Part shown: in pieces, positions 41,086 to 58,939 of the stretch
How positions within the stretch are numbered: position 1 is the first letter of the stretch
How the letters are laid out: each line of letters begins with the position of its first letter
Assembly: GCA_963720715.1 (NCBI GenBank)
Contig: CAVRGM010000002.1
Span: forward strand, 129,871 to 193,870
DNA length: 64,000 nucleotides
Direction: 5' to 3'
Origin: an uncultured Chloroflexia bacterium
Lineage (GTDB): Bacteria; Chloroflexota; Limnocylindria; Limnocylindrales; CSP1-4
Made by a program: the position numbers and the translations under genes
The notes under the pieces: model-generated
The model's input: only the letters and a program-made list of their open reading frames with translations
The model's database searches: none
Told to the model about the DNA's origin: nothing

Positions 41086-42153
41086 ATGCGCCTGACCGTC
41101 ATCGGCGCCGGTCCCGCCTACACCGATCGCCCGGGCGCCGCCGGCGCCGCCTACCTGGTCCGGCATGGCGACGCGGCGATCCTGCTCGATCTCGGCCAGG
41201 GGGCCTTTCCCCGATTAGCCGGGCTGCTCGACCCGGCAACGCTGGATGCGATCGTGATCAGCCACCTTCACCCGGATCATTTCGTCGACCTGGTGTCGAT
41301 GCGCCACTACCTTCGCTGGGAGAAACCGCGCCGGCGGGTCCGGGTCCTCGGCCCGGCCGGTCTGGCCGACCGTCTCGATGCCTTGCACGACGAACCCGGC
41401 TTCGCGGCGGCCGCGCTTGATTTCGAGCCCCTGCTGGAGGGCCGTTGGGAGATCGGTCCGTTCGAGGTGGAGGCCACCCGAGTGACCCATACCGCGTCGA
41501 GTTTCGGTTTTCGGGTCGGTATCGCGGCGACCGGTCGTGACGCCGGACCGGGGCTGGTCTACTCCGGTGACTGCGGTCGCGCGGAAGATCTGGACGTGCT
41601 CGTTCGACCTGGCGACACGCTGCTGTCCGAGGTTTCGTTCGGGCCGGGTCCGATCGTGCCCGGACCCTGGCATCTCGACGGGCCGGCCGTCGGCGCCCTG
41701 GCGCGTCGGAGCGGCGCGGGTCGCGTGCTCCTGACCCACATCCAGATGGGGTTCGACCGTCGGGCGACCGTGGACAGCGTCGCGGCGGTGTTCGACAGCG
41801 GTCCGGTCGAGCTCGTCGGACCCCGGCTTCGAGACCACCATCGGCGACTAGAGGAGTGGCGTTTGGCCGGGCCTGTGTCGGCCGGGCCACCGCCCTCGCA
41901 TCCGGCCGGCCCATCGGCGCCCCACGCCCGTTACGACCGCCCAACCACGTCGTGGAGCTTCCGGCAGCGCCCAGGGTCGTGTTCGTTGGTCATCTGGGCG
42001 CCAGGCGCTCCTCCTGACTGCCGAGGTGCATGCGAGCCGGTCCGGGCCGAGGTTCGTCGGTCGGTGCGGGCGCCTGGCGCCGATGTCGAACCGGCCGCCG
42101 GATCCGGACCTACAGCAGCGGGGCTCCGCGGCGCAGGGCCCGCCCGCGGTTGA
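41086..42153 (+). CDS. MBL-fold metallo-hydrolase. The last roughly 100 aa may be a spurious read-through.
   Basis: HxHxDH motif ISHLHPDHFVD. The C-terminal tail overlaps the convergent GT2 gene by 44 nt and contains a copy of the GGCGCCTGGCGCC palindrome. Confidence 0.7.
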   Translation: MRLTVIGAGPAYTDRPGAAGAAYLVRHGDAAILLDLGQGAFPRLAGLLDPATLDAIVISHLHPDHFVDLVSMRHYLRWEKPRRRVRVLGPAGLADRLDALHDEPGFAAAALDFEPLLEGRWEIGPFEVEATRVTHTASSFGFRVGIAATGRDAGPGLVYSGDCGRAEDLDVLVRPGDTLLSEVSFGPGPIVPGPWHLDGPAVGALARRSGAGRVLLTHIQMGFDRRATVDSVAAVFDSGPVELVGPRLRDHHRRLEEWRLAGPVSAGPPPSHPAGPSAPHARYDRPTTSWSFRQRPGSCSLVIWAPGAPPDCRGACEPVRAEVRRSVRAPGADVEPAAGSGPTAAGLRGAGPARG

Positions 42154-42883
42154 CCCACATGTGGAGTCGCAGGCGCCAGAAATCACGAACGGCGCGGAGC
42201 ACGACCGAGGGCTTGGCCCCGGTGGCCGAACCGGCCGTGCGCGGATAGTGGGGGACCCCGACCTCCACGACCGAATGGCCGGAGGCGCGCAACTTGATGA
42301 CCATCTCGGCGGAGAAGAAGGCGCCATCCGACTCGACCCGCAGGCCGTCGAGGGCGTCACGTCGGAAGAGTTTGGCCGCGCAGTCGACGTCGGTGACCCG
42401 GAGACCGAAGAAGATCCGATTGGCCAGGCGATAGGCGCCGGCATAGGCGAGTCGAAGCGCCGCATCGGCTCGCTTGATCCGATAGCCGACCACGATGTCG
42501 GGCTGGTCCGGCTCCGCCAGTCGTGCGGTCAACCGCCCGATGTCGATGATGTGGAATTGGCGATCGCCGTCCGTGAACGCCACGAGTTCGTAGCGGCTGG
42601 CCGCGAACCCGGATCGGAGCGCTGCGCCGTAGCCCAGATTCGTCGGATGGTGGACCGCCCTGACGACGTCGGGATTGGCCGTCGCAAGCCCGTCGGCGAT
42701 CTCCGCGGTGCCGTCGGTCGACCCGTCGTCGACGGCGATGATCTCGAACGTCTCCGCGAGCTGCGGCAGGATTTCGAGTGCCTCGGCGATCAGGCCCTCG
42801 AGGTTGTCCTCCTCGTTATGTGCGGGAAAGAAGTAACTCAGGCGCGGGACGCGCGAAACGGTCGTGAGGCTCGTTGCTGGCAT
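42110..42883 (-). CDS. GT2-family glycosyltransferase (polyprenyl-phosphate mannosyl/glucosyltransferase-like)
   Basis: YFFPAHNEEDNL, IIAVDDGSTDGT and DGDRQF (DxD) motifs. Confidence 0.85.
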   Translation of the reverse strand: MPATSLTTVSRVPRLSYFFPAHNEEDNLEGLIAEALEILPQLAETFEIIAVDDGSTDGTAEIADGLATANPDVVRAVHHPTNLGYGAALRSGFAASRYELVAFTDGDRQFHIIDIGRLTARLAEPDQPDIVVGYRIKRADAALRLAYAGAYRLANRIFFGLRVTDVDCAAKLFRRDALDGLRVESDGAFFSAEMVIKLRASGHSVVEVGVPHYPRTAGSATGAKPSVVLRAVRDFWRLRLHMWVNRGRALRRGAPLL

Positions 42884-42908
42884 GGCGCGGATTGTAGGCC
42901 GGAATCAC

Positions 42909-42940
42909 GGAACCCCGGCTGGCGAACCAGCCGGGGTTCC
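42909..42940 (-). terminator. Perfect 14-bp GC-rich stem-loop (GGAACCCCGGCTGG cgaa CCAGCCGGGGTTCC), 20 nt downstream of the collagen-like gene stop
   Basis: The inverted repeat is read directly from the sequence. There is no clear U-tract, which is common in high-GC actinobacteria. Confidence 0.5.
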
Positions 42941-42960
42941 GATGAAACGCGAGGCGTTGC

Positions 42961-43993
42961 TTACGAAGCGCAGAGCGCGTAGGCGGTCAGCGACGGCGGG
43001 TTGCCGTTCTGCTGATTCCCAGCGACGATCGTCGCGACGACTGTCCACGTCGTGCCATTGCCGTTGGGATAGGAGGCGGTGATCGCGGCGTAATGCTTTG
43101 CGTTGTTCCCGGTGACTTCGCCACCGCCGGCGACGAGCGTTCCCGAGGAACATGTCGCCGTCGCGGTCACGGTCGTCCCGAGGCCGTTATTGCCGTTGAA
43201 ACCGCTGGTGGTGCCAGTGTTCCTCGCCACGCTGCCGAGGCCACCGGAGGGACCAGCTGGACCGGCTGGACCGGTGTCGCCCGTGTCACCCTTGTTGCCC
43301 TTCGGCCCCTGGTCGCCCTGGGGCCCCGTGTCGCCCTGCGGCCCGGTGTTACCCTGCGCGCCAGCGGCACCTGGGGCTCCGTCTGCGCCGGCAGGACCCT
43401 GCGGTCCGGGATCGCCCTGAGGACCGGCAGGACCCTGGGCGCCATCAGCACCGGCAGGGCCCTGGGCGCCATCAGTACCAGCTGCGCCGTCAGCACCAGC
43501 CGCACCATCGGCACCAGCGGGACCCTGGGCGCCATCAGCGCCGGCAGGACCCTGGGCGCCATCGGCGCCTGCAGGACCCTGGGCGCCATCGCACCAGCGC
43601 GCCTGCAGGACCCTGGGCGCCATCGGCACCGGCAGGACCCTGGGCGCCATCGGCACCGGCGGCACCGTCAGCGCCGGCCGCACCCTGGGCACCCGTGGCG
43701 CCCTGCGCACCGGTCGCACCGGTCGCACCGGTCGCACCCGTGGCTCCGGTCGGTCCCGTCTTATTCCACTCGACGTAGATCTTGCCGGACTTGCAGCTCG
43801 TTGGGCTGGCCTTGGGCCGGATCTTGACATTGTGATTCTTCGGGTTCAGACAACCTTTGATCGTCGTCCCGCCACCGGGCGGGTACGAGGATGCGGCGAG
43901 CGCCGCGCCGGACAGGCTGAGCGCCAACGCCCCGGCCATGACGACCGTGGCCGGCTTGCGATAGCGGCTGATCTGAGGTGAGATCGTGATCAT
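42961..43993 (-). pseudogene. Collagen-like triple-helix repeat protein (paralog 1): signal peptide, a Cys-containing N-domain, G-X-Y repeats and a C-terminal globular domain, split by a frameshift near 43590-43620
   Basis: ORF 43535..44107 supplies the N-terminus (MITISPQISRYRKPATVVMAGALALSLSGAALA...[45 protein letters not shown]). ORF 42961..43830 supplies the remaining G-X-Y repeats and the C-domain. One 27-nt repeat unit is replaced by an irregular 34-nt unit (gccatcgcaccagcgcgcctgcaggaccctgggc). Confidence 0.6.
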
Positions 43994-44118
43994 TCGGTGC
44001 CCTCTCGGGATGCAGGACTGGTCGCGCAAGAAGTCGCGCGATGGATGAAGTCCAGCCGAATAGTCGTTCCCGCGGTGCGTCGGCGCGATGAGTCCAATGG
44101 ACCGCACGGACCGGTACC

Positions 44119-45099
44119 TTATAGCCCCTCAACACGGATGCCAGCAGGCATGAAAGAACCCCGCCAGGTTGCTCCGGCGGGGTTCTTCGTGACGTCAGAC
44201 GGAATCTGCCGTCGATCGAGATTCGCTAAGCTTTCGCGCACACCACGTACGCCTGCAAGCGAATAAGACGTGTTGCCAAGGCTAAAGGAGACATCGCCGG
44301 TCGCCGTCCATGTATCCGAAGCACTCGGATAGCTATTGGTGATGACCACGGCCCCAACGTTGCTCACGTTGCTGGTCCGGAAGCCGCCACCGATCGCGAC
44401 CTTGCTGCCGGGGCAGGTGGCCGTCACGGACTTGGCATTCTCGTTGTCGGTCGATGCCGTTCCGTTGACGATCTCGTAGCCACTCACGCCGTCAGCGCCG
44501 TCAGCGCCGTCAGCTCCATCGGCCCCGTTTGCCCCGTCAGCCCCGTCAGCACCATCGGCGCCGTCAGGACCGGGATCGCCCTGGGGACCGGGATCGCCCT
44601 GGGGACCGGGATCGCCCTGGGGACCGGCAGGTCCGGGATCGCCCTGGGGACCGGGATCGCCCTGGGGACCAGTAGCGCCGTCGGCGCCATCTGCACCTGG
44701 GGCGCCGTCAGCGCCGTCAGCACCGGCGGGTCCGGGATCGCCCTGGGGACCGGGAATGCCATTACCGTCAGCGCCGGCAGGACCGACATCGCCTTGGGGA
44801 CCGGCGGGACCGGCAGGACCGGCAGGACCATCTGCGCCCGCGGGACCGGCTGGGCCTTGGATCGACCACTCGACGTATTTCGTGCCCTTCTTGCAGGAGG
44901 AAGGCGATGCCTTCGGGCGGATCTTGATGTAGTGGTTATCCGGGTTGAGGCAGCCCTTGATGATCGTCTCGCCGTGGGGCGGGTAGGCGGTCGTGTCTGC
45001 GGCACCAACGGCGCCGGCCATGCCCAGAGCGAGGACTCCTGCGGCCATCATGGTGAATGGCTTTCGGTAGCGACCGATGGAACTCGGGAATGTCGCCAT
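44119..45099 (-). CDS. Collagen-like triple-helix repeat protein (paralog 2); the 3' end is possibly frameshifted
   Basis: [33 protein letters not shown] signal, the same [26 protein letters not shown]-domain, about 50 G-X-Y triplets ([12 protein letters not shown]..., GADGADG...) and a C-domain [15 protein letters not shown]. An alternative frame at the 3' end ends ...[10 protein letters not shown], matching paralog 1's ...TAYALCAS*. Confidence 0.7.
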
Positions 45100-45302
45100 G
45101 CGTACCCCTTTCGCTTGCGGACCTTGTCTCGAGGAATGCGGTGAGACACATTGAGTCCACTAGGCACATTCTCAGGCCCGCTGGCTGGCGACACTATAGG
45201 CCGGACCGCCTAACCTTTGTCCAGACTGGATAGGCAGTTGGTCGGGTGCGGGTCACGACCACCCCGGACCATCGGGGCAGCCGATCCGGTCGGCGAAGTC
45301 GG

Positions 45303-46244
45303 CTAGTTGGTCAGGTGGAGCGTCGGGCTCCCGAGGAACCTTGGGCAGGAGCCGAACGCACAGCCCGTTGTCGTCAGCTGCTCGTTGACGTACGGGGCGA
45401 CGAAGTAGCCGGTGATGTGCTTGTTGCTGCCGCCGGACGCGCTCACGACGTGGAACGTGGCCCAGCCCTGGAAGTTGCCGTTGTGGTCGACGACCGGGAC
45501 CGGCACATTGGTGCCAGCGAGATATGACTGAACGTCGCTGTACAGCGCCGTGTGGTTGCCGTTGTTGTGCTGGCCGATGTATTCACCGAATGCCAACGTC
45601 TTGTTGATCACGAGCGAGCCGTCGATGATGCTGCGGACGGTGCTCGTGTTGACGTTGCCGGTCCCGTAGTTCGTCCAGGCGATGTCGCCCGGTCCGTTCG
45701 GGATGTCCCCGTTGCCTTCGCCGAAGTCATATGGGTTTGACGGATTGGCGTAGGCAGACAGTGGCTGACCGTTCGGCCCGAACGCATCGATGCTGAAGAT
45801 GAATGGTGCCCCACCGTTCACGGTATCGGGGTAGCCGCTCTGTGCGGTCGCAGTGGTACTCACATCCCAACTCGGCATGCCGACGATCGAGGCGAAGTTG
45901 TTGCGGTGCGGCGCGGTGATGTCGACCTTGACGATCGCCCCGTTCGTCGTCGTGATCGCCACGTTGACGGAAACGCCGTCGGTCCCGTGCGTGTAGCCAT
46001 TGATCGCGGCCACCGACCGGGCTCGAGCGATCGCGAGTGGCGTGTCCGAATTGAGCAGGTAGTCATTGGCTGCAGCGAGTGCCGACAGGTCGGCAGCGCT
46101 CTGCTCGTCGCGACGCATGGCGAAGGAGGATCCACCGTCGAGCACGAGGCCCACCATGGCGATGAGGGCGATGAGTGCGAGTGCGAAGAGGACGACGATC
46201 TGCCCCGCCTGACCCCTGCGGTCGGCCCGGTCGATTCGATTCAT
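45303..46244 (-). CDS. TadG-like pseudopilin (Tad-domain N-terminus)
   Basis: Internal ATG (M59 of ORF 45303..46418). MNRIDRADRRGQAGQIVVLFALALIALIAMVGLVLDGGSSFAMRRDEQSAADLSALAAANDYL is a typical TadG/Tad-domain prepilin-like N-terminus. Confidence 0.75.
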   Translation of the reverse strand: MNRIDRADRRGQAGQIVVLFALALIALIAMVGLVLDGGSSFAMRRDEQSAADLSALAAANDYLLNSDTPLAIARARSVAAINGYTHGTDGVSVNVAITTTNGAIVKVDITAPHRNNFASIVGMPSWDVSTTATAQSGYPDTVNGGAPFIFSIDAFGPNGQPLSAYANPSNPYDFGEGNGDIPNGPGDIAWTNYGTGNVNTSTVRSIIDGSLVINKTLAFGEYIGQHNNGNHTALYSDVQSYLAGTNVPVPVVDHNGNFQGWATFHVVSASGGSNKHITGYFVAPYVNEQLTTTGCAFGSCPRFLGSPTLHLTN

Positions 46245-46261
46245 GGTTGTGCCTGGACCTT

Positions 46262-46678
46262 TCACTGGATGTTCACTGAACTGCTGGATTGCATGTCGAA
46301 GGTGCCGACGAGGCCAAGGATCGGCGTGATCGGCGTGTATGGCGCGTGGATCACGACCTTGACCTGATAGCCCGCGCGACAGGTCGTGGCGATGGTCGAA
46401 CCGTCGATGTCGACGCAATAGAAGGTCGGATTCGCGAGACCGGGGATGAGTTTCTTTTGCGTGGCCAGGACGGCCACGGTCTCGGCGCTGGTCCCGAGCG
46501 GACTGCCGGGATGGACGCTCGTCGCCCGGGCGATCTCGCGAGCCGCCTGGGAAACCCCGTTGTACATGTAGATGCCTCGACCCATGTCGAAGACGCCCAT
46601 CAACAGCATCATGAAGATCGGCAGAGCCAGAGCGAACTCGAGAACCGCCTGGCCACGCTCGGCTCGCACTCGGCGCAT
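46262..46678 (-). CDS. TadE-like pseudopilin
   Basis: ATG at 46678 (M92). RGQAVLEFALALPIFMMLLMGVFDMGRGIY is a TadE-family N-terminal motif. The start shares one nt with the upstream stop. Confidence 0.75.
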   Translation of the reverse strand: MRRVRAERGQAVLEFALALPIFMMLLMGVFDMGRGIYMYNGVSQAAREIARATSVHPGSPLGTSAETVAVLATQKKLIPGLANPTFYCVDIDGSTIATTCRAGYQVKVVIHAPYTPITPILGLVGTFDMQSSSSVNIQ

Positions 46679-47989
46679 CAATTGGTCACCGTGACCTGGT
46701 GCGACACCGTGCTCGAACCGCCAAGGGTCGAGACCGTCAGCTGGATCGTGTAGATGCCGGACGAGTTGTAGACGTAGCCCGGCGGGTTCTGGAGCGACGA
46801 GTTGCCGCTGCCGTCGCCGAAGTTCCACGACCAGGTGTTGTTGCAGCCGGCCGTCGTCATGTTCGTCGACGCGTCCGTTACGGCGAAGGACGCCTTCTTC
46901 TTCTTGCCGCTTGCCGGTGTGACGGTGAACGCCGCCACGGGCACCGGACATGGGGCCGCGGCATTGATCGTCTTCGTCTTGGTGTCAGAGCCAGTTCCGT
47001 TGGTGACGGTCAGGCGCGACGTTATAGACACCGATCGTCAGGGTAGGTATGGACCGGCGGAGATTGCACGTTCGACGTCTGGCCGTCACCGAAGTCCCAC
47101 GCCCACAGCGTCGGGGTCCCGGTCGACGTATCGGTGAACGTGACGTCGAGTGGCGCAGCGCCCGTCATCGGCGACGCATTGAAGGCGGCGACCGGCGGCT
47201 GCCGGGGCGGCCGAACTCACCGTGATCGTCCGTGTGACCGAGTTGCTGCCACCCGCGTTCGTCACCGTCAGGCGCGCATAGAAGAACCCGAGCGACGCGT
47301 AGGTGTGGGCTGGCGGGTTCTGGCCGACGAAGGTCTGCCCGTCACCGAAGTCCCACGACCATGTGGTCGGCCCTCCGGTCGAGGTATCGACGAACGTCAC
47401 CGCCAAGGGTGCGGTGCCGGACGTGGGGGTCGCGGTGAAGTTCGCGCTTGGCGCCGCCGACACGAGGTTCGGCGTCACCAGGAGCTGCGCCGAGGCTGTC
47501 GAGTCGAACGAGATCTCCTGACCGCCGAAAAAGCTCGAGAGGAGCGGCGTCAGCAACGTGAAATGACCGGAAACCCGGACCGAGACCGTATCGCCGAGGG
47601 CGCTGGACGTCGGCGGGCACGGCGTACGTCGAGCACTCCATCGTGACGTCCGTCGCTGCGACTGTGACGAAGCTGCCTTTTGCCTCGTTGAGCGCCCGAC
47701 ACATGACCCGGTTCTGCTCCTTGTTGGCCGAGGTGCAGGCCGTATTCGGGATGAACGAGGACGGGTTGCGAGAAGCCTCGAGGGCTGCCTCGCGGGCGGC
47801 GTCATTGACGCTGATCTGCGAATAGAAGAGGCGGCCGAGATCGATGGCCGCGCCAAGCATGATCAGCATGATCGGCAGGATCAGGGCGAGCTCGACGATG
47901 GCCTGCCCTCGAGATCGAGAAGCACGCTTCGAGGCGGTGCGGCTACCCGTTGACGAAGGGCGTCGCCCCCTCAACGGAATGGAGTTCAT
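46678..47989 (-). pseudogene. TadE-like N-terminus fused to three PKD domains, split across three frames (at least 2-3 frameshifts)
   Basis: Frame a (47342..48022): MNSIPLRGRR...RGQAIVELALILPIMLIMLGAAIDLGRLFYSQ. Frame b (47086..47856): ...FSFLTPLL-type linker plus PKD (TTWSWDFGDGQTFVGQNPPAHTY...ARLTVTN). Frame c (46678..47031): the end of a second PKD plus a third PKD (TWSWNFGDGSGNSSLQNPPGYVY...IQLTVS). WDFGDG-encoding motifs are visible at about 47350, 47090 and 46815. Confidence 0.55.
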
Positions 47990-48154
47990 GAACGTGAGGC
48001 CTCTGCTTGGTGCGTTGGACATGAGGTGTCGTCAAAACACCATCGCCCCGACACCTTTCAGCCTCACTTGAAACGGTGCCCGCGTGCATAGCCCGGACGT
48101 TCACACCAAAGGCTCAATCGTCCTGTCGCGATCGCAACTCACGCCCGAAATGGA

Positions 48155-48180
48155 AGAGCCGCGACTCGTGTCGCGGCTCT
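48155..48180 (-). terminator. 11-bp stem-loop (AGAGCCGCGAC tcgt GTCGCGGCTCT) 24 nt downstream of the TadG-like stop, followed by a T-rich stretch
   Basis: Perfect inverted repeat read from the sequence. It lies in the 180-nt gap between tandem module 2 (TadG-like) and module 1 (TadE-PKD). Confidence 0.5.
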
Positions 48181-48203
48181 TTGCGCAGGGCCGGAACGAC
48201 GAC

Positions 48204-49259
48204 CTAGTGGATCAGCTGGACGGCCAAGGGAGCGCCCGCGAATCCCGGCGTGGATGTGGTCGGACCCGTGAAGAACGGAACTCTCCAGACGCCTTCGACA
48301 TCCTTGCCGCCGTGGCACGCCGTGAGCTGGAAGCCCGTGAACCCGACGATGTGGTACCAAGCGTTCTGGCCAGTGCCACCCGCGTAGTCCCAGACTGGTA
48401 CGGTCACGACGATCTTGTTGGTGATGTAGTAGTCGCAGTCCGCGCTCGCCTTGTTACCCGGAAGGTTGCCGATCTTGTCAGCGCTACCAGGGAGGCCGAC
48501 TTCGGTGCAGCATCCAAAGCTATTGGATGGTGGCCCGATCTCGGTCTGCAAGAACGGCTTGGAATTCGCACAGCCGCCATTGGAGCCCTGACCCAGCCCA
48601 TAACCGGAGCAGCCGAACTTGAGCCACCCGAAGCCGCCCGGGACGTTGAGCGTGCCCGGCGTCATATGGGCCGGATAGCACGGGTCTCCTGGCACGTTGC
48701 TGACCGGGCCGGAGCAAGGCTGACGCCCGTCGAAGAATGCCTGGGCGATCCCGACCGGGAACACTCCCGTTCCGGGGCCGCCCGCGGCATACCCGCCTCG
48801 AGCGATCGCATCCGCGGTCGCTGTCCAGTTGTTGAATCCGGCGATCGACAGGAAGTACGGCTTCCAGTCATTGCTCGACGACACCTTGACGCCCACGGCC
48901 GTCCCGGGCATCGTCCCGGAGCCCACATACCCGAGCGTCCCGCCCGCGGCATTGACGTAGCGAGGCCCATCCGGTGCGCCAAAGACGATCGGTGTCCCCT
49001 TGTTGGCAGCAATAGACGCGACGATCGCCGCTTTGACGTTGGCGTCTGTGCCGTTGGCCGCATCTCCGCCGATCTTGACCGCGACGACACGAGCTCCGGC
49101 CATCGCTGCAAAGTCCGATGCGTTCTGGGCCTCGCGTCGATGAACGAGCGCGGTGCCACCGTCGATGACGAGGCCAACCAACAGGATGATGGCGACGAGG
49201 CTGATGCCGAACAGGGCGATCATCTGACCTCGCTGACCGGCGCGCGACGTGTTTGGCAT
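48204..49259 (-). CDS. TadG-like pseudopilin (paralog of 45303..46244)
   Basis: ATG at 49259 (M64). MPNTSRAGQRGQMIALFGISLVAIILLVGLVIDGGTALVHRREAQNASDFAAMAGA. The Cys/Gly-rich C-terminal region is shared with the paralog. Confidence 0.75.
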   Translation of the reverse strand: MPNTSRAGQRGQMIALFGISLVAIILLVGLVIDGGTALVHRREAQNASDFAAMAGARVVAVKIGGDAANGTDANVKAAIVASIAANKGTPIVFGAPDGPRYVNAAGGTLGYVGSGTMPGTAVGVKVSSSNDWKPYFLSIAGFNNWTATADAIARGGYAAGGPGTGVFPVGIAQAFFDGRQPCSGPVSNVPGDPCYPAHMTPGTLNVPGGFGWLKFGCSGYGLGQGSNGGCANSKPFLQTEIGPPSNSFGCCTEVGLPGSADKIGNLPGNKASADCDYYITNKIVVTVPVWDYAGGTGQNAWYHIVGFTGFQLTACHGGKDVEGVWRVPFFTGPTTSTPGFAGAPLAVQLIH

Positions 49260-49270
49260 TGCTGGGCTCC

Positions 49271-49766
49271 CTAATTGATCGTCATGGTCGCCGCGCCGGC
49301 GAGCGTCACGTTGCCCACGATGTTCCCGATGACCGGAGTGAGCGGTCGAAATGTGAGTTCCGTCCGAACCGACACGCGATTGCCGTTTGTTGGCGACCCG
49401 CACGTCGTATCTGTCCACGCCCCGGTCGGCGCTGCGCCGCTCGTGCATTTCGTATAGACCTTGTTGGTCGGGATAGATTCAAATGGCGCGACCATCCGAT
49501 TGGCCGCATTCGCGACGTCTGTCCGCCACACGCTCACGTTCGCCGGACACGTCGGGCCACCCGATGTCCCGCAACTTGCATCAGCCTTGCCGATCCAACT
49601 GGCCTCGACTGATCCGACCCGAGTGGCTTCTCTGGCCGCCTGGGACAGCACCGTGTTCATGTACACGAGCCGACCCACGTCGATGAGCCCGAACAACATC
49701 AGCAGGAAGATCGGCAGCACGAGCGCGAACTCAACGAGCGCCTGGCCTGCGTCGTCGGCGTGTCAC
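49271..49766 (-). CDS. TadE-like pseudopilin (paralog of 46262..46678), with the N-terminus apparently frameshifted
   Basis: Frame B encodes ...GQALVEFALVLPIFLLMLFGLIDVGRLVYMNTVLSQAAREA but has no start codon. Frame A, directly upstream, reads GTG-TRRRRRPGAR*. A one-base indel would give MTRRRRRPGQALVEFALVLP..., a typical TadE N-terminus. Confidence 0.6.
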
Positions 49767-50870
49767 GGAAAGACGACCTGATGGCTCACCGCGCGAGCCG
49801 GATCGACACGATCCATTCGTGACGGTCAGGGTGACTGTGAACGTGCCTGAATTTCCGTAGGCGTTGGAGTCGTTCTGCGGCCGGTTCCGCTGATTGCCCG
49901 TCCCCGAAGATCCAGGCCCAAGATGACCGGGGCCGGTTGGCCGCTGTAAGCGCCGTAGAACGTCATCTCGTGCTTCTTTGCCCCATTGCCCTGCCCAGTG
50001 AACGCGTACGTGAATGTCGGAAGCGTTGTGCATACGGGGCCAGTGGGGGTTGGCGCCGGCGTCGCAGTCGGCGCGGGCGTAGGCGTCGCGGTTGGCGTAG
50101 GTGTCGGCGTCGCGCCGGGGCCCGACTGCGATGAACTGCGTCGAGGAAAGCTCACCCCCGGGATTGCTGACCGTAAGCGTGATCCGGTATGTCTGCGCGC
50201 CTGCGTACGTGTAGCTCGCAGTCCTACCAACGATCGGTGGGAAGGGATCAAGTCCATCACCCATATCCCAGTCGTAGCCGGATATTGCACACGCCCCTGT
50301 ACTTGGAGCTGCAGCGGATGCGTCCAATGCGACGTCGTACGTCGCGACAGTGACCGTGAAGGCCGCGCTGGTTGGGGGTGCGCACCCGGACGGCGGCGCC
50401 GCGCCGCCGTTCGGGGCGAGACCGAGAACCGCCGCCGTCGAGGATGACTTGATGTCAAGTCCGCCGCCGAAGAAGCTGTTGATCAGCGGCGTGAGGAAGG
50501 AGAATCGCTCGGTGACGTTCACCGTCACGGTGTTGCCCGTTCCTCCTCCTCCGGCTGCATCGACGCATGAGATCGTCGTCCCGGCGGGATTGGCACACGT
50601 CGCTGCGACCGCCAGCGTGCTTTCTCCCGTCTGGCCCTGGACATTGGTTTCCTGCCGAGCGCGGGACGTCATCGTCGCGCTGTCGTTCGGATAGACGGAG
50701 CCGTAGGAGGCCGCTTCGCGCGACGCGTTGCTGATCTGGACGTAGGAGAAGAACATCCGCCCGACGTCGATGGCGATGAGCAGAAACAGGAGGAGCAACG
50801 GCAACAGTAGAGAGAACTCGACCAATGCCTGGGCCCGCGACTTGTCGGAGCGAGATCGATTCAGGCGCAA
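49731..50870 (-). pseudogene. TadE-like N-terminus fused to PKD-like domain(s) and a PT-linker (paralog of 46678..47989), split over at least two frames
   Basis: Frame A (TTG start at 50870): MRLNRSRSDKSRAQALVEFSLLLPLLLLFLLIAIDVGRMF...FSFLTPLINSFFGG...ISGYDWDMGDG...YRITLTVSN, then nonsense. Frame B (49826..50458): PTPTPTATPTPAPTATPAPTPTGPVCTTLPTFTYAFTG... continues the protein. Confidence 0.5.
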
Positions 50871-51132
50871 GGGATGGCGTGAGACCGTCTGTCGCGTGCG
50901 CGACGAGGCGATCGCCGGGATCCGTGGGCCGGGTAATCGGGGCGAATTCTTTCGGGCACCGGCGGATACTAGGCCGGAAACCTTACGCCGGACCTTTCAC
51001 TTTGTCGGGGGTGACCAAGGTTCGGTGCCGTCACGCACCGTCCGCGGCCCCGAGCGAGCCCTGGGACCGTACTCGGGCAGGACTTCCGGGCGGGTGGTCG
51101 AACGCGCGGTCGCCGTCGCACCATGGCGCGCC

Positions 51133-51351
51133 ATGAGACGAGTCGTCGCCACGATCCTGTGGTTCTACGTTGGCTGGTATGCCGGAAACATGGTGGCTGA
51201 GTTGATCGGCGTGACGCCGTATCTCGGTCCAGTCGTCGGTGTGGCCCTCGCCCTCGTGGCCCTTGGGGATCCCCGGCGCTTCCGGACAGCGACCAAGGCA
51301 TCGGAGCAGACGACTGCCTCGATCGCCGAGGGCCAGACCGAACCGTCCTGA
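51133..51351 (+). CDS. Small two-TM membrane protein (72 aa)
   Basis: Internal ATG of ORF 50770..51351. MRRVVATILWFYVGWYAGNMVAELIGVTPYLGPVVGVALALVALG. Confidence 0.3.
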   Translation: MRRVVATILWFYVGWYAGNMVAELIGVTPYLGPVVGVALALVALGDPRRFRTATKASEQTTASIAEGQTEPS

Positions 51352-51361
51352 CCGGTCTGGG

Positions 51362-52780
51362 TCAGGCCTCCGTGCCTGGTTCACCTGGGAGCTGGATGCT
51401 GAACGTGCTGCCCGAGCCGACGACGCCGTCGGCGAGGCTGAGTTCCCCGCCCATGGCTCGGCACAGTTCCCTCGATACGTAGAGCCCAAGGCCGCTGCCC
51501 TCGCTCGACTGGCCAGTTTCGCCTCGGGCGAACCGCGCGAATAGTCTCGATCGATCCTCCGGCGCGATGCCCGGGCCGCCGTCGGAGATCGTCATGCACA
51601 GGCGCGCCGCCTCCGCATCGACCGTGACCGCCACCGTGACCGGCGAACGGCCGCCGTACTTGATGGCGTTGTCGAGGAGGGCCCACAGGACCTGGTCGAG
51701 CTGGTCGCCGTCGGCGATGGCCAACCAGCCGCCGGAACCATCATCGAGGCTGAAGTCGACGTCGTCCGCGCCGAGTGCCTCCCACGCTTTGCGCGCGCGG
51801 GTCGCCAGGTTGAGCACCTCCGCTCGCGGTCGCAGCGCCCCGGACTCGAGCCGGTTCACCATCAGGAGCTGGCGGACCATCCGCGACAAGCGTTCGGCCT
51901 GCTCGGAGATGATCCCCAGGCGTCGATCCGGGTGGTCGCCTTCGAGCTGCTCGGCATAGGCACGGATGCTCGTCAGCGGGGTCTGAAGGTTGTGGCTGAC
52001 GCCCCGCAGGAAGTCATCCTTGGCGGCATCGAGCTCAAGAAGCTGAGCGTTCTGGGACTCGACCTGGCTGAACAGCTGGGCGTTCCGGATGGCGATGGCC
52101 ACCTCGCTGGTGAACAGCTGGAGCAGGTCCTGATCGGCCGGCTCCCAACGCCGGGTGGCGGGCAGCCGACCCAGCAGGACACCGAGTTCATCGCTGCCGG
52201 CGCGCATCACTGCCCGTAGCTGGCGGACCTCGCCGGCCACGACCTCGACCTCCGGCACCAGCGACGGATCGCCCAGGATGACGGTCGCATCGATGAGCCC
52301 GAACGCGGCTCGCGCGTCCTTGCCCGCCCGCTCGACGAGGTCCTCCACGCCATCGCGCGGCGACATCGATTCGATGGCGGCCAGGATCTTGTCCAGCTCG
52401 CGGTTCCGCCGTTCGAGCGACGCGGCCAGTGTGTTGTGGCTCTCCGACAGTCGAGCGAGTTCGTCGTCGCCGGCAACTTGGATGGGTGTCGAAAGATCAC
52501 CACTCGAGACCCGGTCGACGGCCTCGGCGACATCGTGCAGTGGCCGGGTCAGGTCGCCGACGAGGACGTATGAGCCGAGGATCGACAGGACGGCGACGAT
52601 GGTCAGCCCGAACAGCAGCAGGCGGCTGAGGTTTGCGTCGGCCGATGATCCACCGAGCGCCGAACCGACGACCAGCACGAAGATCCCGAAGATGGCCAGC
52701 GGACTGAGCGACGCGAGCATCAACGCCCCCGTCAATCGCGTCCGGAAGCTCAGTCCAGGCGACCGCTCCGGGTCAGGCAT
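51362..52780 (-). CDS. Sensor histidine kinase (TM-HAMP-HisKA-HATPase)
   Basis: ATG at 52780 (M20) overlaps the response regulator stop by 8 nt. H-box GVSHNLQTPLTSI; G-box GSGLGLYVS. Confidence 0.85.
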   Translation of the reverse strand: MPDPERSPGLSFRTRLTGALMLASLSPLAIFGIFVLVVGSALGGSSADANLSRLLLFGLTIVAVLSILGSYVLVGDLTRPLHDVAEAVDRVSSGDLSTPIQVAGDDELARLSESHNTLAASLERRNRELDKILAAIESMSPRDGVEDLVERAGKDARAAFGLIDATVILGDPSLVPEVEVVAGEVRQLRAVMRAGSDELGVLLGRLPATRRWEPADQDLLQLFTSEVAIAIRNAQLFSQVESQNAQLLELDAAKDDFLRGVSHNLQTPLTSIRAYAEQLEGDHPDRRLGIISEQAERLSRMVRQLLMVNRLESGALRPRAEVLNLATRARKAWEALGADDVDFSLDDGSGGWLAIADGDQLDQVLWALLDNAIKYGGRSPVTVAVTVDAEAARLCMTISDGGPGIAPEDRSRLFARFARGETGQSSEGSGLGLYVSRELCRAMGGELSLADGVVGSGSTFSIQLPGEPGTEA

Positions 52781-53525
52781 CGACCGACAGGTCCGGCGGC
52801 GGAACGCCGACCGTCGGCACGAGCCGGTAGCCGACACCCCGGACGGTCTGGATGTGGATCGGGCGATTGGGGTCCATCTCGACCTTCTGGCGGAGCCGTC
52901 GCATCGTCACCCAGACATAGGAAGGGTCGGCGTCGTCGGTGTCCGCCCAGCCACGGGCGAGGAGCGTTTCGGTCGGGACGGTCTGGCCGATGCTCGCGGC
53001 GAGCGCGTACAGCAGGCGCGATTCGGTCGGGGTCAGCTCGACCGTCTTGCCACCGACGGTCGCCTCGCGTCGATGGAGGTCGAGGGTGAGGTCCGGACCG
53101 AGGACAAGGCTCTGGCGCGGGACCTTGTCGCCGAGTCGGCGCAGCACTCGATTGATCCGCGCTCGCAGCTCCGGGTAGTGATACGGCTTGGTGACGTAGT
53201 CCTCGGCCACCTCCTCGAGGAGATCGGCCTTGGAGTCGCCGGCATCGATGGCCGACAGGACGATGACGGGCAGGTCGGCTCGAGACTTGATCTCGCGGGC
53301 CAGGGACAGGCCGTCCATCCGGGGCATCATCATGTCGATGATCAAGAGGTCCGGCCAGGCGGTCTCCATCCGTCTGAGTGCCTCCACGCCGTCGCGTGCC
53401 GTGATCGTCTCGAACCCGTCCGCCTGGAGCTGGTCGGCCAGCAGGACGAGCAGGTTCGGGTCGTCATCGACGATGAGGATTCGTGGGGCCTGCAGCCGCG
53501 GCCCCGTGGGCCAGACGCTCGACAT
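52773..53525 (-). CDS. OmpR-family response regulator
   Basis: ATG at 53525 (M39). RILIVDDDPN, DLLIIDMMMPRMDG and a winged-helix C-terminus. Confidence 0.85.
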   Translation of the reverse strand: MSSVWPTGPRLQAPRILIVDDDPNLLVLLADQLQADGFETITARDGVEALRRMETAWPDLLIIDMMMPRMDGLSLAREIKSRADLPVIVLSAIDAGDSKADLLEEVAEDYVTKPYHYPELRARINRVLRRLGDKVPRQSLVLGPDLTLDLHRREATVGGKTVELTPTESRLLYALAASIGQTVPTETLLARGWADTDDADPSYVWVTMRRLRQKVEMDPNRPIHIQTVRGVGYRLVPTVGVPPPDLSVDA

Positions 53526-53572
53526 CGTCGGAGGATAGCAGCGGGCCGGGGCGTGCCCGGACCCCGACGTGG

Positions 53573-54301
53573 TCAGTCGGACTTCTTGCCCTCGACCGCC
53601 TGATCGCGCAGTTCGGGTCGGAAGTCGGCTTCGGGCCACGGGGGCACGGGGGACTCGGGGCCGTCGGCAGGTGCCTCGACGTCGCTCCCATCAGGGTCGC
53701 TCGCATCGGCGTCGCTCGTATCGTCGCCGTATTCGAGCTCCGAGGCGGCGATCATCTGGGTCCGGTTGATCAGAACGAACGGATACTCACCGGTGATCCG
53801 ATCCTCAGCCAGGGAGCGAACGGTCACCTCCGTGACCGAGACGAAACGAGGATCGGTGGCATCGACGAAGCCGTCGATGTGGGTCTGGCCGAACAGGTAG
53901 ACGTGACCGGACAGCGTGTGCGCCGGTGTGAACATGACGAACTCGCGAGCCCGGCGAACCTCGATGCCGGGGGTCGACATCTCTTCGACGAAACCGGTCG
54001 CGACGAGCGTCTCCGGTGGTTGTTCCTCGCTCTGGGCGATGAACGAGATCTCGTCCTGGTCGACCATGATCTCCGCGAACTCTGCACCTGTCGGCTCGCC
54101 GTCGGGCCGGAGGAGGCGGACATCGTGGACGCGGATGTACCCGCTCGAGGCATTGATCAGGTCCGACAACCGGCCGAACCGGCCCAGCCCGACCTTGCCC
54201 ACGAGCCGGAGGTGGAGACCGAAGAGCTCGATCGCCTGCTCGTGCTCGCTCCCGCCAGCAGCGACACCGTCGCCGATCGTGAAGCCACTCTCCCAACTCA
54301 T
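53573..54301 (-). CDS. Conserved hypothetical protein (243 aa) upstream of the two-component system, with an acidic C-terminal tail
   Basis: ATG at 54301 (M49 of ORF 53573..54445). No recognisable motifs. Confidence 0.5.
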   Translation of the reverse strand: MSWESGFTIGDGVAAGGSEHEQAIELFGLHLRLVGKVGLGRFGRLSDLINASSGYIRVHDVRLLRPDGEPTGAEFAEIMVDQDEISFIAQSEEQPPETLVATGFVEEMSTPGIEVRRAREFVMFTPAHTLSGHVYLFGQTHIDGFVDATDPRFVSVTEVTVRSLAEDRITGEYPFVLINRTQMIAASELEYGDDTSDADASDPDGSDVEAPADGPESPVPPWPEADFRPELRDQAVEGKKSD

Positions 54302-56776: not shown

Positions 56777-58420
56777 CTACTTGTATGTGTACTCGTCGGC
56801 CGCCGTGGCCGTCGACGCGCCGCCCGGTGTGGTCACGATGATGTCGACCGTCTTGCCCTTGGTGCCGGCCGGCGCGGTCAGGCTGATCGACGTGTCGCTC
56901 GTCACGGTGAAGCCCACCGGCTTCCCGCCGAACGTGACCGACGTGGCCCCGGTGAAGAAGACGCCGGTGACGGTCACCCCGTTGCCGCCCACCGCGAGCC
57001 CGGACCCAGGGCTGACGCCCTTGACGGCCGGGATCGGGTACAGCTGGACGAGGTGGGAGCCGCTCTTGGCCAGTTGCGCGGCGGCCGCCTTGAAGATCCC
57101 GGACAGGTCGGTCGAGGCCCCGGTCTTGCCGATGCAGAAGAAGTGGTCGTCGTCGGTGTTCTCGGTCGCCGTACAGGTGGTCGGATTGACCGTCGGTTGG
57201 GTCGACATACTGGCCAGGAGAGCCGTCGCGGTCTTGCCCTTCCAGGCGCCGGACGTATCCGGGCAGGCGGGATCACCGCCGCTGGCGGCGTCCAGCCCGA
57301 AGCCGATGGTGAAGATCTCGATGTTCTGCGCCTTCGCGGCAGCGGCCGCGTTGCTCGCCAGGAGGCAATAGTTCGGCCCGGAGCCCACCGCGTTGTTCGG
57401 CTGGCCGTCGGTCTCGAAGATGATCCCCTTGCGGACACCGGGGCGACCGTTCTTGATCAATTCGTAAGCCGCCGTCGTGATCGGGTCGGCGAGATCCGTG
57501 CCGGTGCTCGAATTCGTGTAGCAGGCGATCGCCGCCGAGACCTTCGAATAGTTCGAACTGAAGGACGACCCGACGCCGCTCAGGCCGACGGGGACCCAGC
57601 GCCGCAGGTCCGTGGGCAGGTTAGCCGTCCCGATCGCACTCGCGCCGCCTGCGACGCAGCCGCCCGAGGTGACGCTGGGCCCAAGCGCGCCGAGTCCCAG
57701 CCACTGGACGTTCGGGTCATACAGGCTGACAATCGAGTTCGCGGCTGCCTTGGCGTTGGTCGTATCGGTGCCGCTCATGCTGCCCGTCCGGTCCATCACC
57801 AGCATGACGTCGACCGGCGTGACCGGAGATTTCCCGCATGGGCCGTTGCACGCCGCGGAGGTGACGACGCCGGTCGATCCGCTGTTGACGCCGACGACGC
57901 GAGAGAACGAGTAGGGCGTCGTGGCGGCCCCGGAGATGAACACCGCGTTGCACATGTCGCCGACTTTCGGCACGCACGACGAGAACCTCGTCGGACCCGC
58001 GCCGTAGAAGTCGCTGGCGACCGGCTGCCGGCCCATCGACTTGCTGGGATCGCAGACGAGCGGGATGTCTCGCGAGATGTAGGGCTTGGCCGGCGTGCTC
58101 GTGTCGACTCCGATGAGGCACTTGTAGCTGATCGTGTAGGCCGACGACGGCAGGCCCGGGTAGTTGGCCTGGATCGTCTTGGTGATCAGGCTGTCGGCGG
58201 CCGCGGCCGATCCGGCCACGGAGCCATCGACTGGCAGCAGGGTCCCGCCGGCGAGCGCCGCGGAGTCGAGCGCATTGGCCAGCGTCTGGCGGTCGTTTCG
58301 CAGCAAGCCGATGTCGACGACCATCCCGGCGAAGGCCAGGATGACCACGAGAACGAGCGCGAACAGGACGATGATCTGGCCCTGTTCGCCCTCGGCGTGG
58401 GCATGGCGGAGGCGGCGCAT
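56777..58420 (-). CDS. TadG-like pseudopilin with a von Willebrand factor A domain and a C-terminal IPT/TIG (Ig-like) domain
   Basis: N-terminus EGEQGQIIVLFALVLVVILAFAGMVVDIGLLRNDRQTLANALDSAALAG. vWA MIDAS-like motifs DVMLVMDRTGSMSG and IIFETDGQPN. C-terminal TIG region VTVTGVFFTGATSVTFGGKPVGFTVTSDTSISLTAP. Confidence 0.8.
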   Translation of the reverse strand: MRRLRHAHAEGEQGQIIVLFALVLVVILAFAGMVVDIGLLRNDRQTLANALDSAALAGGTLLPVDGSVAGSAAAADSLITKTIQANYPGLPSSAYTISYKCLIGVDTSTPAKPYISRDIPLVCDPSKSMGRQPVASDFYGAGPTRFSSCVPKVGDMCNAVFISGAATTPYSFSRVVGVNSGSTGVVTSAACNGPCGKSPVTPVDVMLVMDRTGSMSGTDTTNAKAAANSIVSLYDPNVQWLGLGALGPSVTSGGCVAGGASAIGTANLPTDLRRWVPVGLSGVGSSFSSNYSKVSAAIACYTNSSTGTDLADPITTAAYELIKNGRPGVRKGIIFETDGQPNNAVGSGPNYCLLASNAAAAAKAQNIEIFTIGFGLDAASGGDPACPDTSGAWKGKTATALLASMSTQPTVNPTTCTATENTDDDHFFCIGKTGASTDLSGIFKAAAAQLAKSGSHLVQLYPIPAVKGVSPGSGLAVGGNGVTVTGVFFTGATSVTFGGKPVGFTVTSDTSISLTAPAGTKGKTVDIIVTTPGGASTATAADEYTYK

Positions 58421-58425
58421 CGGGA

Positions 58426-58896
58426 TTACTCGCGAACCATCTGGACCGTGGAGCCCAGGTCGATCGTGTTCCCGAAGAGCAACGGGAAGAACGTGTGATA
58501 CGTGTAGGTCACGTTGACCGAAACGGCATCACCGGCCTGCGAACCGGTCGACGACGAGAATGAACAGGACCCCGACGTGGCGATCGCGACGCAGCTCGTG
58601 TTGACCCCGATATCGGCCTTGACCAGCCCGGTCGACACGGACAGGACCTTGCCCTTGGCGACGCTCGGGATCGTGGTGGGATCGCTTGCGATGATGGCCT
58701 GGCGGGCTCCCTCGCGGGCGGCACTGATGACGGTCATCCGGGAGTAGAGCAAGAAGCCGAAGTCCAGGATGCCGGACAAGACCAGCAGGAATGCCGGCAG
58801 GACGATGGCGAATTCCACGAGCGCCTGGCCTCGGGAGCGAGGTCTGCGGCGCCGTCGCCGGGAGCCTGGTGCCAATGATCGGTCGGTGGTAGGCAT
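58426..58896 (-). CDS. TadE-like pseudopilin
   Basis: MPTTDRSLAPGSRRRRRRPRSRGQALVEFAIVLPAFLLVLSGILDFGFLLYSRMTVISAAREGAR. Confidence 0.75.
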   Translation of the reverse strand: MPTTDRSLAPGSRRRRRRPRSRGQALVEFAIVLPAFLLVLSGILDFGFLLYSRMTVISAAREGARQAIIASDPTTIPSVAKGKVLSVSTGLVKADIGVNTSCVAIATSGSCSFSSSTGSQAGDAVSVNVTYTYHTFFPLLFGNTIDLGSTVQMVRE

Positions 58897-58939
58897 CGTG
58901 CCTCGCTGACTGGGCAGAAGTTGGAGGCAATCGTGCGAT

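Follow-up and report, generated by a model that had tools for sequence, protein, structure and literature searches.

Here we describe two neighbouring genes for collagen-like proteins in a stretch of 64,000 nucleotides (the window; contig CAVRGM010000002.1) from an uncultured soil or freshwater Chloroflexota bacterium. A first-pass annotation of this DNA had proposed two paralogous collagen-like proteins that share an N-terminal module with two cysteines and a beta-rich C-terminal domain, and all of these parts were found on the minus strand where it had placed them. We conclude that the two genes, called gene 1 and gene 2 below, encode two paralogous, separately transcribed and secreted bacterial collagen-like proteins, whose features are the following, each with the evidence for it in brackets:

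44226-45099, minus strand: gene 1, collagen-like protein of about 290 amino acids in the family frame (list of open reading frames (ORFs) and three-frame translation)
44998-45099, minus strand: gene 1 signal peptide, residues 1-33/34 (hydropathy profile and sequence; conserved in seven aligned relatives)
44857-44997, minus strand: gene 1 N-module, including the two-cysteine motif IKGC-x18-C-x8-W at 44866-44961 (alignments; hidden Markov model (HMM) matches in relatives)
44491-44856, minus strand: gene 1 collagen region (Pfam PF01391, E = 2.7e-19; triplet counts)
44226-44490, minus strand: gene 1 C-terminal head, 87 amino acids in the corrected frame, including the stop codon TAG at 44226-44228 (family search; AlphaFold2 model)
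44154-44187, minus strand: gene 1 terminator-like hairpin with 12-nt perfect arms and a 10-nt loop, followed by UUUCAU (inverted repeat)
42961-43993, minus strand: gene 2, collagen-like protein of about 341-344 amino acids after correction (ORFs and orthologue)
43895-43993, minus strand: gene 2 signal peptide, residues 1-33, ending AALA/A (hydropathy and sequence; alignment of relatives)
43757-43894, minus strand: gene 2 N-module with the 32-residue two-cysteine motif (alignment; HMM matches)
43243-43756, minus strand: gene 2 collagen region (Pfam PF01391, E = 6.1e-26)
43591-43601, minus strand: gene 2 frame break, ggcgcGCTGGTGcgatgg where ggcgccgatgg is expected (sequence reading)
42961-43242, minus strand: gene 2 C-terminal head with the stop codon TAA at 42961-42963 (head-family HMM, E = 1.7e-16)
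42908-42941, minus strand: gene 2 terminator-like hairpin with 15-nt perfect arms and a 4-nt loop (inverted repeat)

Gene 1 starts at the ATG at 45099, with AAAGGGG just 5' of it, and was called as an ORF of 326 amino acids (44119-45099). Gene 2 starts at the ATG at 43993, with GAGAGGG just 5' of it; its N-terminal part lies in the frame of ORF 43535-44107, its C-terminal part is ORF 42961-43830, and the order of its parts is that of gene 1. Both proteins begin with a signal peptide made of RYRKP, 17-19 hydrophobic residues and the cleavage motif VGA/A or ALA/A (the slash marks the cleavage point), which in gene 1 takes the form of an n-region M..RYRKP, a 19-residue hydrophobic core and AVGA/A. 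The assessment is rule-based: the sequences fit the n-, h- and c-region organisation and the -3/-1 rules and are conserved in relatives, and neither of them contains a lipobox cysteine or a twin-arginine motif. The presence of signal peptides was thus confirmed, but their supposed near-identity was overstated, as they are similar and the N-regions of the two proteins are only 61% identical. A short proline-rich segment separates the signal peptide of gene 1 from its two-cysteine motif.

The collagen regions were recognised by Pfam with bit scores of 69 (gene 1) and 90 (gene 2) against a cut-off of 27.2, so that annotation of the repeats, which the first-pass annotation had suggested as a check, came out in its favour at the E values listed above for both proteins. 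This repeat was the only part that Pfam recognised, neither flanking module of either protein being matched in Pfam or NCBIfam. Gene 1 holds 11 + 31 Gly-X-Y triplets around a single G-N-G interruption at residue 112 (44764-44766), and gene 2 has 17 triplets before its frame break and 40 after it; the estimate of 40-60 triplets therefore stands, with the qualification that the run of gene 2 is split over two frames as called. The DNA of both regions is built of 9-, 18-, 27- and 45-nt repeats (9, 18 and 45 nt in gene 1), and several alternative ORFs overlap in it, as would be expected if the Gly-X-Y periodicity were the by-product of GC-rich tandem repeats that are not translated. We consider this so improbable as to be negligible, since two conserved non-repetitive modules flank the repeats in frame, these modules recur in many genomes, and repeat variation in intact copies always comes in multiples of three. 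As a separate observation, the Y positions of residues 80-105 of gene 2 (43679-43756) are very rich in threonine (GATGATGAT...), as they are in the collagen regions of the related loci L008 and L013, and in this they resemble the O-glycosylated GPT repeats of BclA. The neighbouring gene encodes a GT2 glycosyltransferase similar to polyprenyl-phosphate-sugar synthases (best NCBIfam matches PpgS, ArnC and AglJ, all under cut-off), and the stalk may possibly be glycosylated.

Both genes as called contain a break of the reading frame. The break in gene 2 is either an insertion of 7 nt or two deletions of 1 nt, and it coincides with an odd unit of 34 nt (1.9 copies, 43565-43630) that Tandem Repeats Finder placed amid units of 27 nt; when the 7 nt are removed or the two single bases restored, a continuous run of 58-61 triplets results. 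The Gly-X-Y continuity on which the first-pass annotation depended is hence found in gene 2 once corrected, and it is intact in an orthologue of 289 amino acids on the 4.4-kb metagenome contig L002, which aligns with gene 2 over its whole length except for repeat number and lies in the same gene order as in the window, TadE-TadG-collagen-GT2. In gene 1 there is one extra base near 44256-44260, so that the conserved last strand and the stop codon TAG lie one base out of frame and the called ORF ends in an unrelated tail that reads through the terminator hairpin of its own gene to a stop at 44119. The corrected end is supported by the alignment of homologues through the last query residues (85-87), by the C-terminal position of the domain (the C-domain of the family ends in ...SLQAYxxCA, at most 5 residues from the stop) and by the hairpin lying 3' of the corrected stop. 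The beta-rich C-domain of gene 1, which opens with GVSGYEIV, belongs to the same family as that of gene 2; the sharing of a globular C-domain by the two proteins is in this sense borne out, but the two heads are only 36% identical and the called C-terminus of gene 1 was out of the family frame.

Separate transcription, likewise proposed earlier, agrees with the fact that each gene has its own upstream spacer, its own Shine-Dalgarno-like motif and a strong terminator-like hairpin at its 3' end. The spacer 5' of gene 1 measures 203 nt, close to the 200 nt first given for it, but that between the genes is of about 230 nt when counted from the corrected stop of gene 1, and not of 125 nt. The gene 2 hairpin folds at -40.6 kcal/mol (z = -5.8) and the stretch around the gene 1 hairpin at -42 kcal/mol (z = -4.5). 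Neither hairpin has a canonical U-tract, and a scan for consensus sigma-70 promoters and canonical terminators found none around the genes; for the hairpins the reason is that the scan demands a run of U. Rfam gave nothing meaningful on the spacers. The hairpins share the core GAACCCCG(G/C)C...G(C/G)CGGGGTTC, and a hairpin-like sequence is apparently also present 3' of the L002 orthologue, as judged by eye only.

The C-terminal head was followed with an exhaustive HMMER search that used the corrected 87-residue head of gene 1 as the query and in which matches were clustered at 50% identity. It retrieved 945 representative clusters at E <= 0.001, 68 of them at E <= 1e-10. Pfam holds no entry for this domain: none of the six members for which a precomputed annotation was shown carried a Pfam domain, and no Pfam match was obtained at E <= 1. 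Re-annotation of the best 150 representatives and three further matches with an iterated profile separated two architectures, one with a single copy at the very C-terminal end of the chain, in most cases behind Gly-X-Y repeats and highly diverse N-terminal domains, and the other with three or six tandem copies after a signal peptide and without collagen. Among the N-terminally complete proteins 37 had one copy, 46 had three, 14 had six and four had some other number; in single-copy members the head always lay at most 5 residues from the C-terminus, and 38 of 68 of these members (many of them fragments) had a run of at least four Gly-X-Y triplets upstream. Copy number in threes is what would be expected if the module works as a trimer, made either of three chains held together by collagen or of three modules fused in one chain, and we consider that the head is probably a trimerising unit.

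AlphaFold2 modelled the gene 1 head from an 81-sequence alignment as a six-stranded sandwich (predicted local distance difference test (pLDDT) 96.4), with the invariant cysteines C26 and C84 on the second and the last strand. The nearest folds, among solved and predicted structures, were tips of trimeric fibres, all with weak scores: the fibre foot of R1/R2 pyocins and gp53 of phage AP22 (E = 0.05-1.2, template modelling (TM) score 0.42-0.50), phage tail fibres and an H-type lectin domain (E of about 5e-3 to 7e-2, TM 0.51-0.59), and a phage collagen-repeat protein. In R-type pyocin and phage tail-fibre tips (6cl5, 6cxb, 6ct8, 4mtm) and in H-type lectin domains a comparable small sandwich forms the far end of a trimeric fibre, and some phage proteins likewise place such a sandwich behind collagen repeats; the structural scores of this similarity are weak (TM of about 0.5, E = 0.005-0.05). 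It could be argued from these matches, and from the one IMG/VR contig (L083) that carries a protein of the same layout, that the genes are phage or tailocin tail-fibre genes of a prophage remnant. The chance of this seems to us very slim, because tail fibres lack the Sec signal peptide that is present on both proteins, and the neighbours annotated by Pfam are Tad pseudopilin-like proteins, a two-component system, GT2 and a metallo-beta-lactamase (MBL) fold hydrolase, without any phage structural domain; scans of viral contigs gave no close relative in a first round and one weak relative in a second. Some proteins that join collagen and head (P0012, P0057, P0119 and L083 4392-5279) have the insert KSAYE(V/I)A..NGY.GT..EW..SLKG inside their collagen region, which we take to be typical of phage tail-fibre collagen proteins.

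The relative P0032, which has three copies, was modelled with a pLDDT of 93.5 and a predicted TM score of 0.87, and this model matched the C-terminal (Cys/His-rich) domain of PCSK9 over all three repeats (E = 3.6e-9, about 255 columns) and the APC-beta domain of apicomplexan PLP1 (E = 3e-7). The PDB title of 2qtw calls the PCSK9 C-terminal domain homologous to resistin; a fold search with the single gene 1 head retrieved neither PCSK9 nor resistin. PCSK9, like P0032, arranges three copies of a small six-stranded sandwich around a (pseudo)threefold axis, the single-copy heads of the window would pack likewise, and resistin carries such heads on a trimeric rod, which is a coiled coil in resistin and a collagen helix in the window proteins. 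The similarity is one of fold only, the window head having one disulfide per module against three, and it may possibly reflect homology.

The two proteins resemble in their layout the known bacterial collagen-like proteins (Pfam PF01391; Scl1/Scl2, BclA, Lcl and Bucl; reviewed in PMC8968730), which are secreted or surface-exposed, carry non-collagenous domains on either side of a Gly-X-Y stalk that lacks hydroxyproline, with one of these domains nucleating the trimer, and differ in repeat number between orthologues. They depart from these in that both of their flanking domains are without a Pfam or NCBIfam model, in the lack of LPXTG, exosporium-targeting or other recognised anchor motifs, and in their host, an uncultured Chloroflexota lineage. 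The possibility that they belong to one of the characterised families, be it the BclA exosporium fibres, the streptococcal Scl1/Scl2 or Legionella Lcl, could draw on a common general layout, in which a collagen stalk stands between a signal or targeting region and a globular domain, and on partial NCBIfam matches to SclB, SclA and Lcl. These matches are nevertheless restricted to the Gly-X-Y region and lie at 47-109 bits against cut-offs of 325-500, namely 47-109 bits against 325-400 for Scl1/Scl2 (NF038330, NF038329) and 54 and 89 bits against 500 for Lcl (NF046116), and no LPXTG, V-domain or visible cell-wall anchor motif exists in either protein. As regards BclA, the N-terminus is a Sec signal peptide and not an exosporium-targeting motif, the host belongs to the Chloroflexota and not to the spore-forming Bacillota, and the head is six-stranded, without the C1q/TNF-like jelly roll. 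The C1q/TNF-like heads of BclA, of the collagen VIII/X NC1 domains and of Cthrc1 (PMC7058181) are comparable in that a C-terminal trimeric beta head registers the collagen stalk, but their jelly rolls measure about 130-150 residues, with ten strands in the structures solved for collagen VIII/X NC1, BclA and C1q. In the window head about 85 residues form six strands, and the 50 best PDB fold matches for gene 1 included neither BclA (1wck) nor a C1q chain. Membership is accordingly very improbable: defining features contradict it, the genes are members of none of the BclA, Scl and Lcl families, and the resemblance to BclA and Scl pointed out in the first-pass annotation holds as an analogy of layout and fails at the level of fold, anchor, V-domain, scores and host.

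Taking these results together, we think it likely that the two tandem genes encode secreted homotrimeric collagen-stalk proteins of Candidatus Limnocylindrales and that their frame breaks are errors of assembly. Each chain would be exported through a Sec signal peptide, with cleavage predicted after AxA from sequence rules; the head of about 85 residues and six strands would then trimerise, register the three chains and nucleate the Gly-X-Y triple helix from its C-terminal end, a step suggested by the quantised copy number and by the model of the three-copy relative. The product would be a rod of about 35 nm (gene 1) or 50 nm (gene 2), at 0.286 nm per residue, with the head at one end as its likely ligand-binding tip and, at the opposite end, the two-cysteine module, predicted to form a disulfide-closed hairpin. 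Several points weigh against this interpretation. The break in gene 1 falls neither in the repeats nor in a homopolymer, and the adjacent TadE-PKD genes contain about four more apparent frame breaks. The single-domain fold matches are weak (TM of about 0.5), and the head-family profile found nothing significant among PDB sequences (the best relevant match was PLP1, E = 1.3), which makes the link of the head to PCSK9 and APC-beta a structural one only.

Whether the frame breaks are errors or signs of decay requires taking into account the relatives of both genes. Of 21 public homologues of the N-module most are short calls of 68-148 amino acids; among ten that we read, the Gly-X-Y frame is lost part-way through the repeats in six and three stop before the repeats are over, and the collagen genes of L001 (9100-10400) and L021 (8752-9856) are broken likewise. 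Many of the related metagenome-assembled genomes (MAGs) come from one large soil series (isolate names MFD...) and consist of megabase contigs, and the contig sizes and the names suggest that they are long-read assemblies. Breaks in so many public relatives fit with systematic consensus errors in GC-rich triplet repeats, and we favour the view that both breaks in the window are consensus errors of long-read metagenome assembly and not biology. The alternative, that both genes are true pseudogenes left in a decaying surface-protein island of fast turnover, has in its support the breaks in the two collagen genes and in the TadE-PKD genes next to them, the normal full-length domain matches of twenty other proteins of the window (which agree with the error reading as well), the position of the gene 1 break in neither a repeat nor a homopolymer, and the closest genome, L003, which has no collagen genes at the site, so that they are dispensable. 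Given the further breaks in the TadE-PKD genes, genuine decay of a variable island is a possibility to be reckoned with, though we hold it to be unlikely: the same kind of break occurs in many independent public relatives and MAGs, which an assembly problem explains better than repeated decay; beyond the single break per gene the frames are open and conserved, with the invariant Cys, GGG and YP positions kept; and start codons, Shine-Dalgarno-like motifs and terminator hairpins are intact. Phase variation by slippage of the repeats was also considered and rejected, as the repeat units are multiples of three and the break is an irregularity of 7 nt or of twice 1 nt. A crude plot of GC content by codon phase across the window proved too noisy for mapping frameshifts.

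The N-module of the window genes is defined by the 32-residue motif IKGCLNP..C..VEW with its two cysteines. The signal peptide and the two-cysteine hairpin are conserved in seven Limnocylindrales genes, where the commoner form is IKACVxKTTKxVRxSIxASPTxCKSTExYxxW, and the profile of these seven retrieved the 21 proteins already mentioned. As regards the phylogenetic distribution of the N-domain, another check suggested beforehand, three of these homologues have source names: two belong to Limnocylindrales or Chloroflexota, and the third, which is the weakest match, comes from an Actinomycetota MAG. The family was reached only through the metagenome contig L002, the synteny with GT2 and the seven-sequence profile; a word-indexed search with the N-region of gene 1 gave nothing, a scan of a genome collection with N-module patterns gave no relative, and neither the gene 1 ORF nor GT2 had an exact match in a gene index, from which the window itself is thus absent. 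A regular expression for a C-x17-20-C motif directly before the repeats matched 10 of the 31 complete proteins with collagen and head that come from other sources, and such a motif is also present on the IMG/VR contig; the N-module HMM gave these look-alike motifs no significant score (best E 0.7), and we therefore treat the resemblance as a pattern and not as shown homology. The module could serve as a cap, a staple or a docking element at the N-terminal end of the rod.

Comparison of the two ends of these proteins points to different histories. The N-module of gene 1 shows 61-63% identity to the N-modules of gene 2 and L002, and its head is 76% identical to that of L001, the N-domain of which is different; the head of gene 2 shares 80% identity with the L002 head and 74% with the L021 head, and L022 combines a different N-domain with a head of the family. 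The Limnocylindrales gene that occupies the equivalent position in L012 (8693-9640) keeps the signal peptide, the hairpin and the collagen region but continues into an unrelated C-domain containing cysteines (TFNSWRAGVATVPAG...YTAMPAN), which is a case of head replacement. The identities of N-modules and heads imply that the window genes are paralogous in their 5' halves and that gene 1 took its head from a different subfamily, for which recombination inside the repeats is a plausible route. The family is thus modular, with heads and N-modules recombined across the repeat region. Tentatively, and short of calling it likely, we propose that the head represents a large family, unnamed and spread across phyla, of secreted modules that form trimers, used as one copy on a collagen stalk in a true trimer or as three or six fused copies in a single-chain pseudo-trimer; that it is the prokaryotic counterpart, and possibly the homologue, of the PCSK9 C-terminal, resistin and APC-beta domains; and that collagen serves as a linker tolerant of recombination for the swapping of heads and N-modules, as at the island between histidine kinase and GT2 in Limnocylindrales.

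The host is a member of Candidatus Limnocylindrales (Chloroflexota), as indicated by the orthologues of GT2, by the named N-module homologues, which are mostly from Limnocylindrales or Chloroflexota, and by the taxonomy; the high-GC organism of the first-pass annotation is hence neither an actinobacterium nor a spore former. The GT2 gene (42113-42883) has orthologues with 66-85% identity in 80 genome loci, all of them MAGs labelled Chloroflexia, Chloroflexota, Anaerolineaceae or Candidatus Limnocylindrales. Between 42110 and 50870 every gene lies on the minus strand, with GT2, gene 2, gene 1 and six TadE/TadG-like pseudopilin genes, some of them fused to PKD domains, and beyond the Tad-like genes there are a histidine kinase and a response regulator. 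We compared this region (42110-53690) with L003, L008, L013, L021 and L022. In the closest genome, L003, the order is response regulator-histidine kinase-five Tad genes-GT2-MBL without a collagen gene, and in L008, L013, L021 and L022 it is histidine kinase-collagen-GT2 without Tad genes between; a collagen-like gene stands directly upstream of GT2 in the window and in L002, L008, L012, L013, L021 and L022. The interval between kinase and GT2 is therefore a variable island in Limnocylindrales that holds Tad clusters, collagen-like genes, both or neither. A functional tie of the collagen genes to the Tad genes was not adopted, each being found without the other beside it in these genomes, and nor was one to GT2, which all 80 relatives carry whether or not they have a collagen gene.

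Some further observations concern the neighbouring genes. Two TadE-like PKD-fused genes on the minus strand (46678-48022 and 49731-50870) each seem to change frame about twice, the first consisting of a TadE N-terminal part, then a TadE C-terminal part with PKD, then a second PKD, and the second of TadE with PKD, a Pro/Thr linker in another frame and a second PKD-like end; together with the collagen genes this brings the number of frame breaks in the stretch from 43 to 51 kb to about six. The MBL-fold hydrolase ORF on the plus strand (41086-42153) has a complete Lactamase_B_2 match that ends at residue 219, after which about 135 further residues with a high content of Arg, Pro and Gly extend the ORF into the convergent GT2 gene; a lost stop or a frame error could explain this tail, but the ORF of L003 is similarly long. 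A second Tad-like pair (56777-58938, minus strand) comprises a TadE-like gene and a TadG-like protein of 547 amino acids with VWA and IPT/TIG domains. No match to a Tad ATPase or platform protein was obtained among the window proteins scanned with Pfam, which covered 34-64 kb most fully.

Bacterial collagen-like proteins are a kind already known, as designable biomaterials and as adhesins of pathogens, and their trimerisation domains are few and mostly from pathogens; what is new here is the two undescribed flanking modules and their setting in an unstudied phylum-level context. The head of 85 residues is common in environmental bacteria, absent from domain databases and appears to trimerise, and a natural single-chain version with three copies exists. 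If long-read MAGs systematically break genes with GC-rich triplet repeats, such proteins would be under-reported in gene catalogues. For the little-known class Limnocylindria, collagen-stalk proteins are here described for a first time, with modular exchange of their ends, and, if our interpretation of the head is true, they would provide both a new domain for the registration and nucleation of collagen and a clear case of evolution from trimer to pseudo-trimer.

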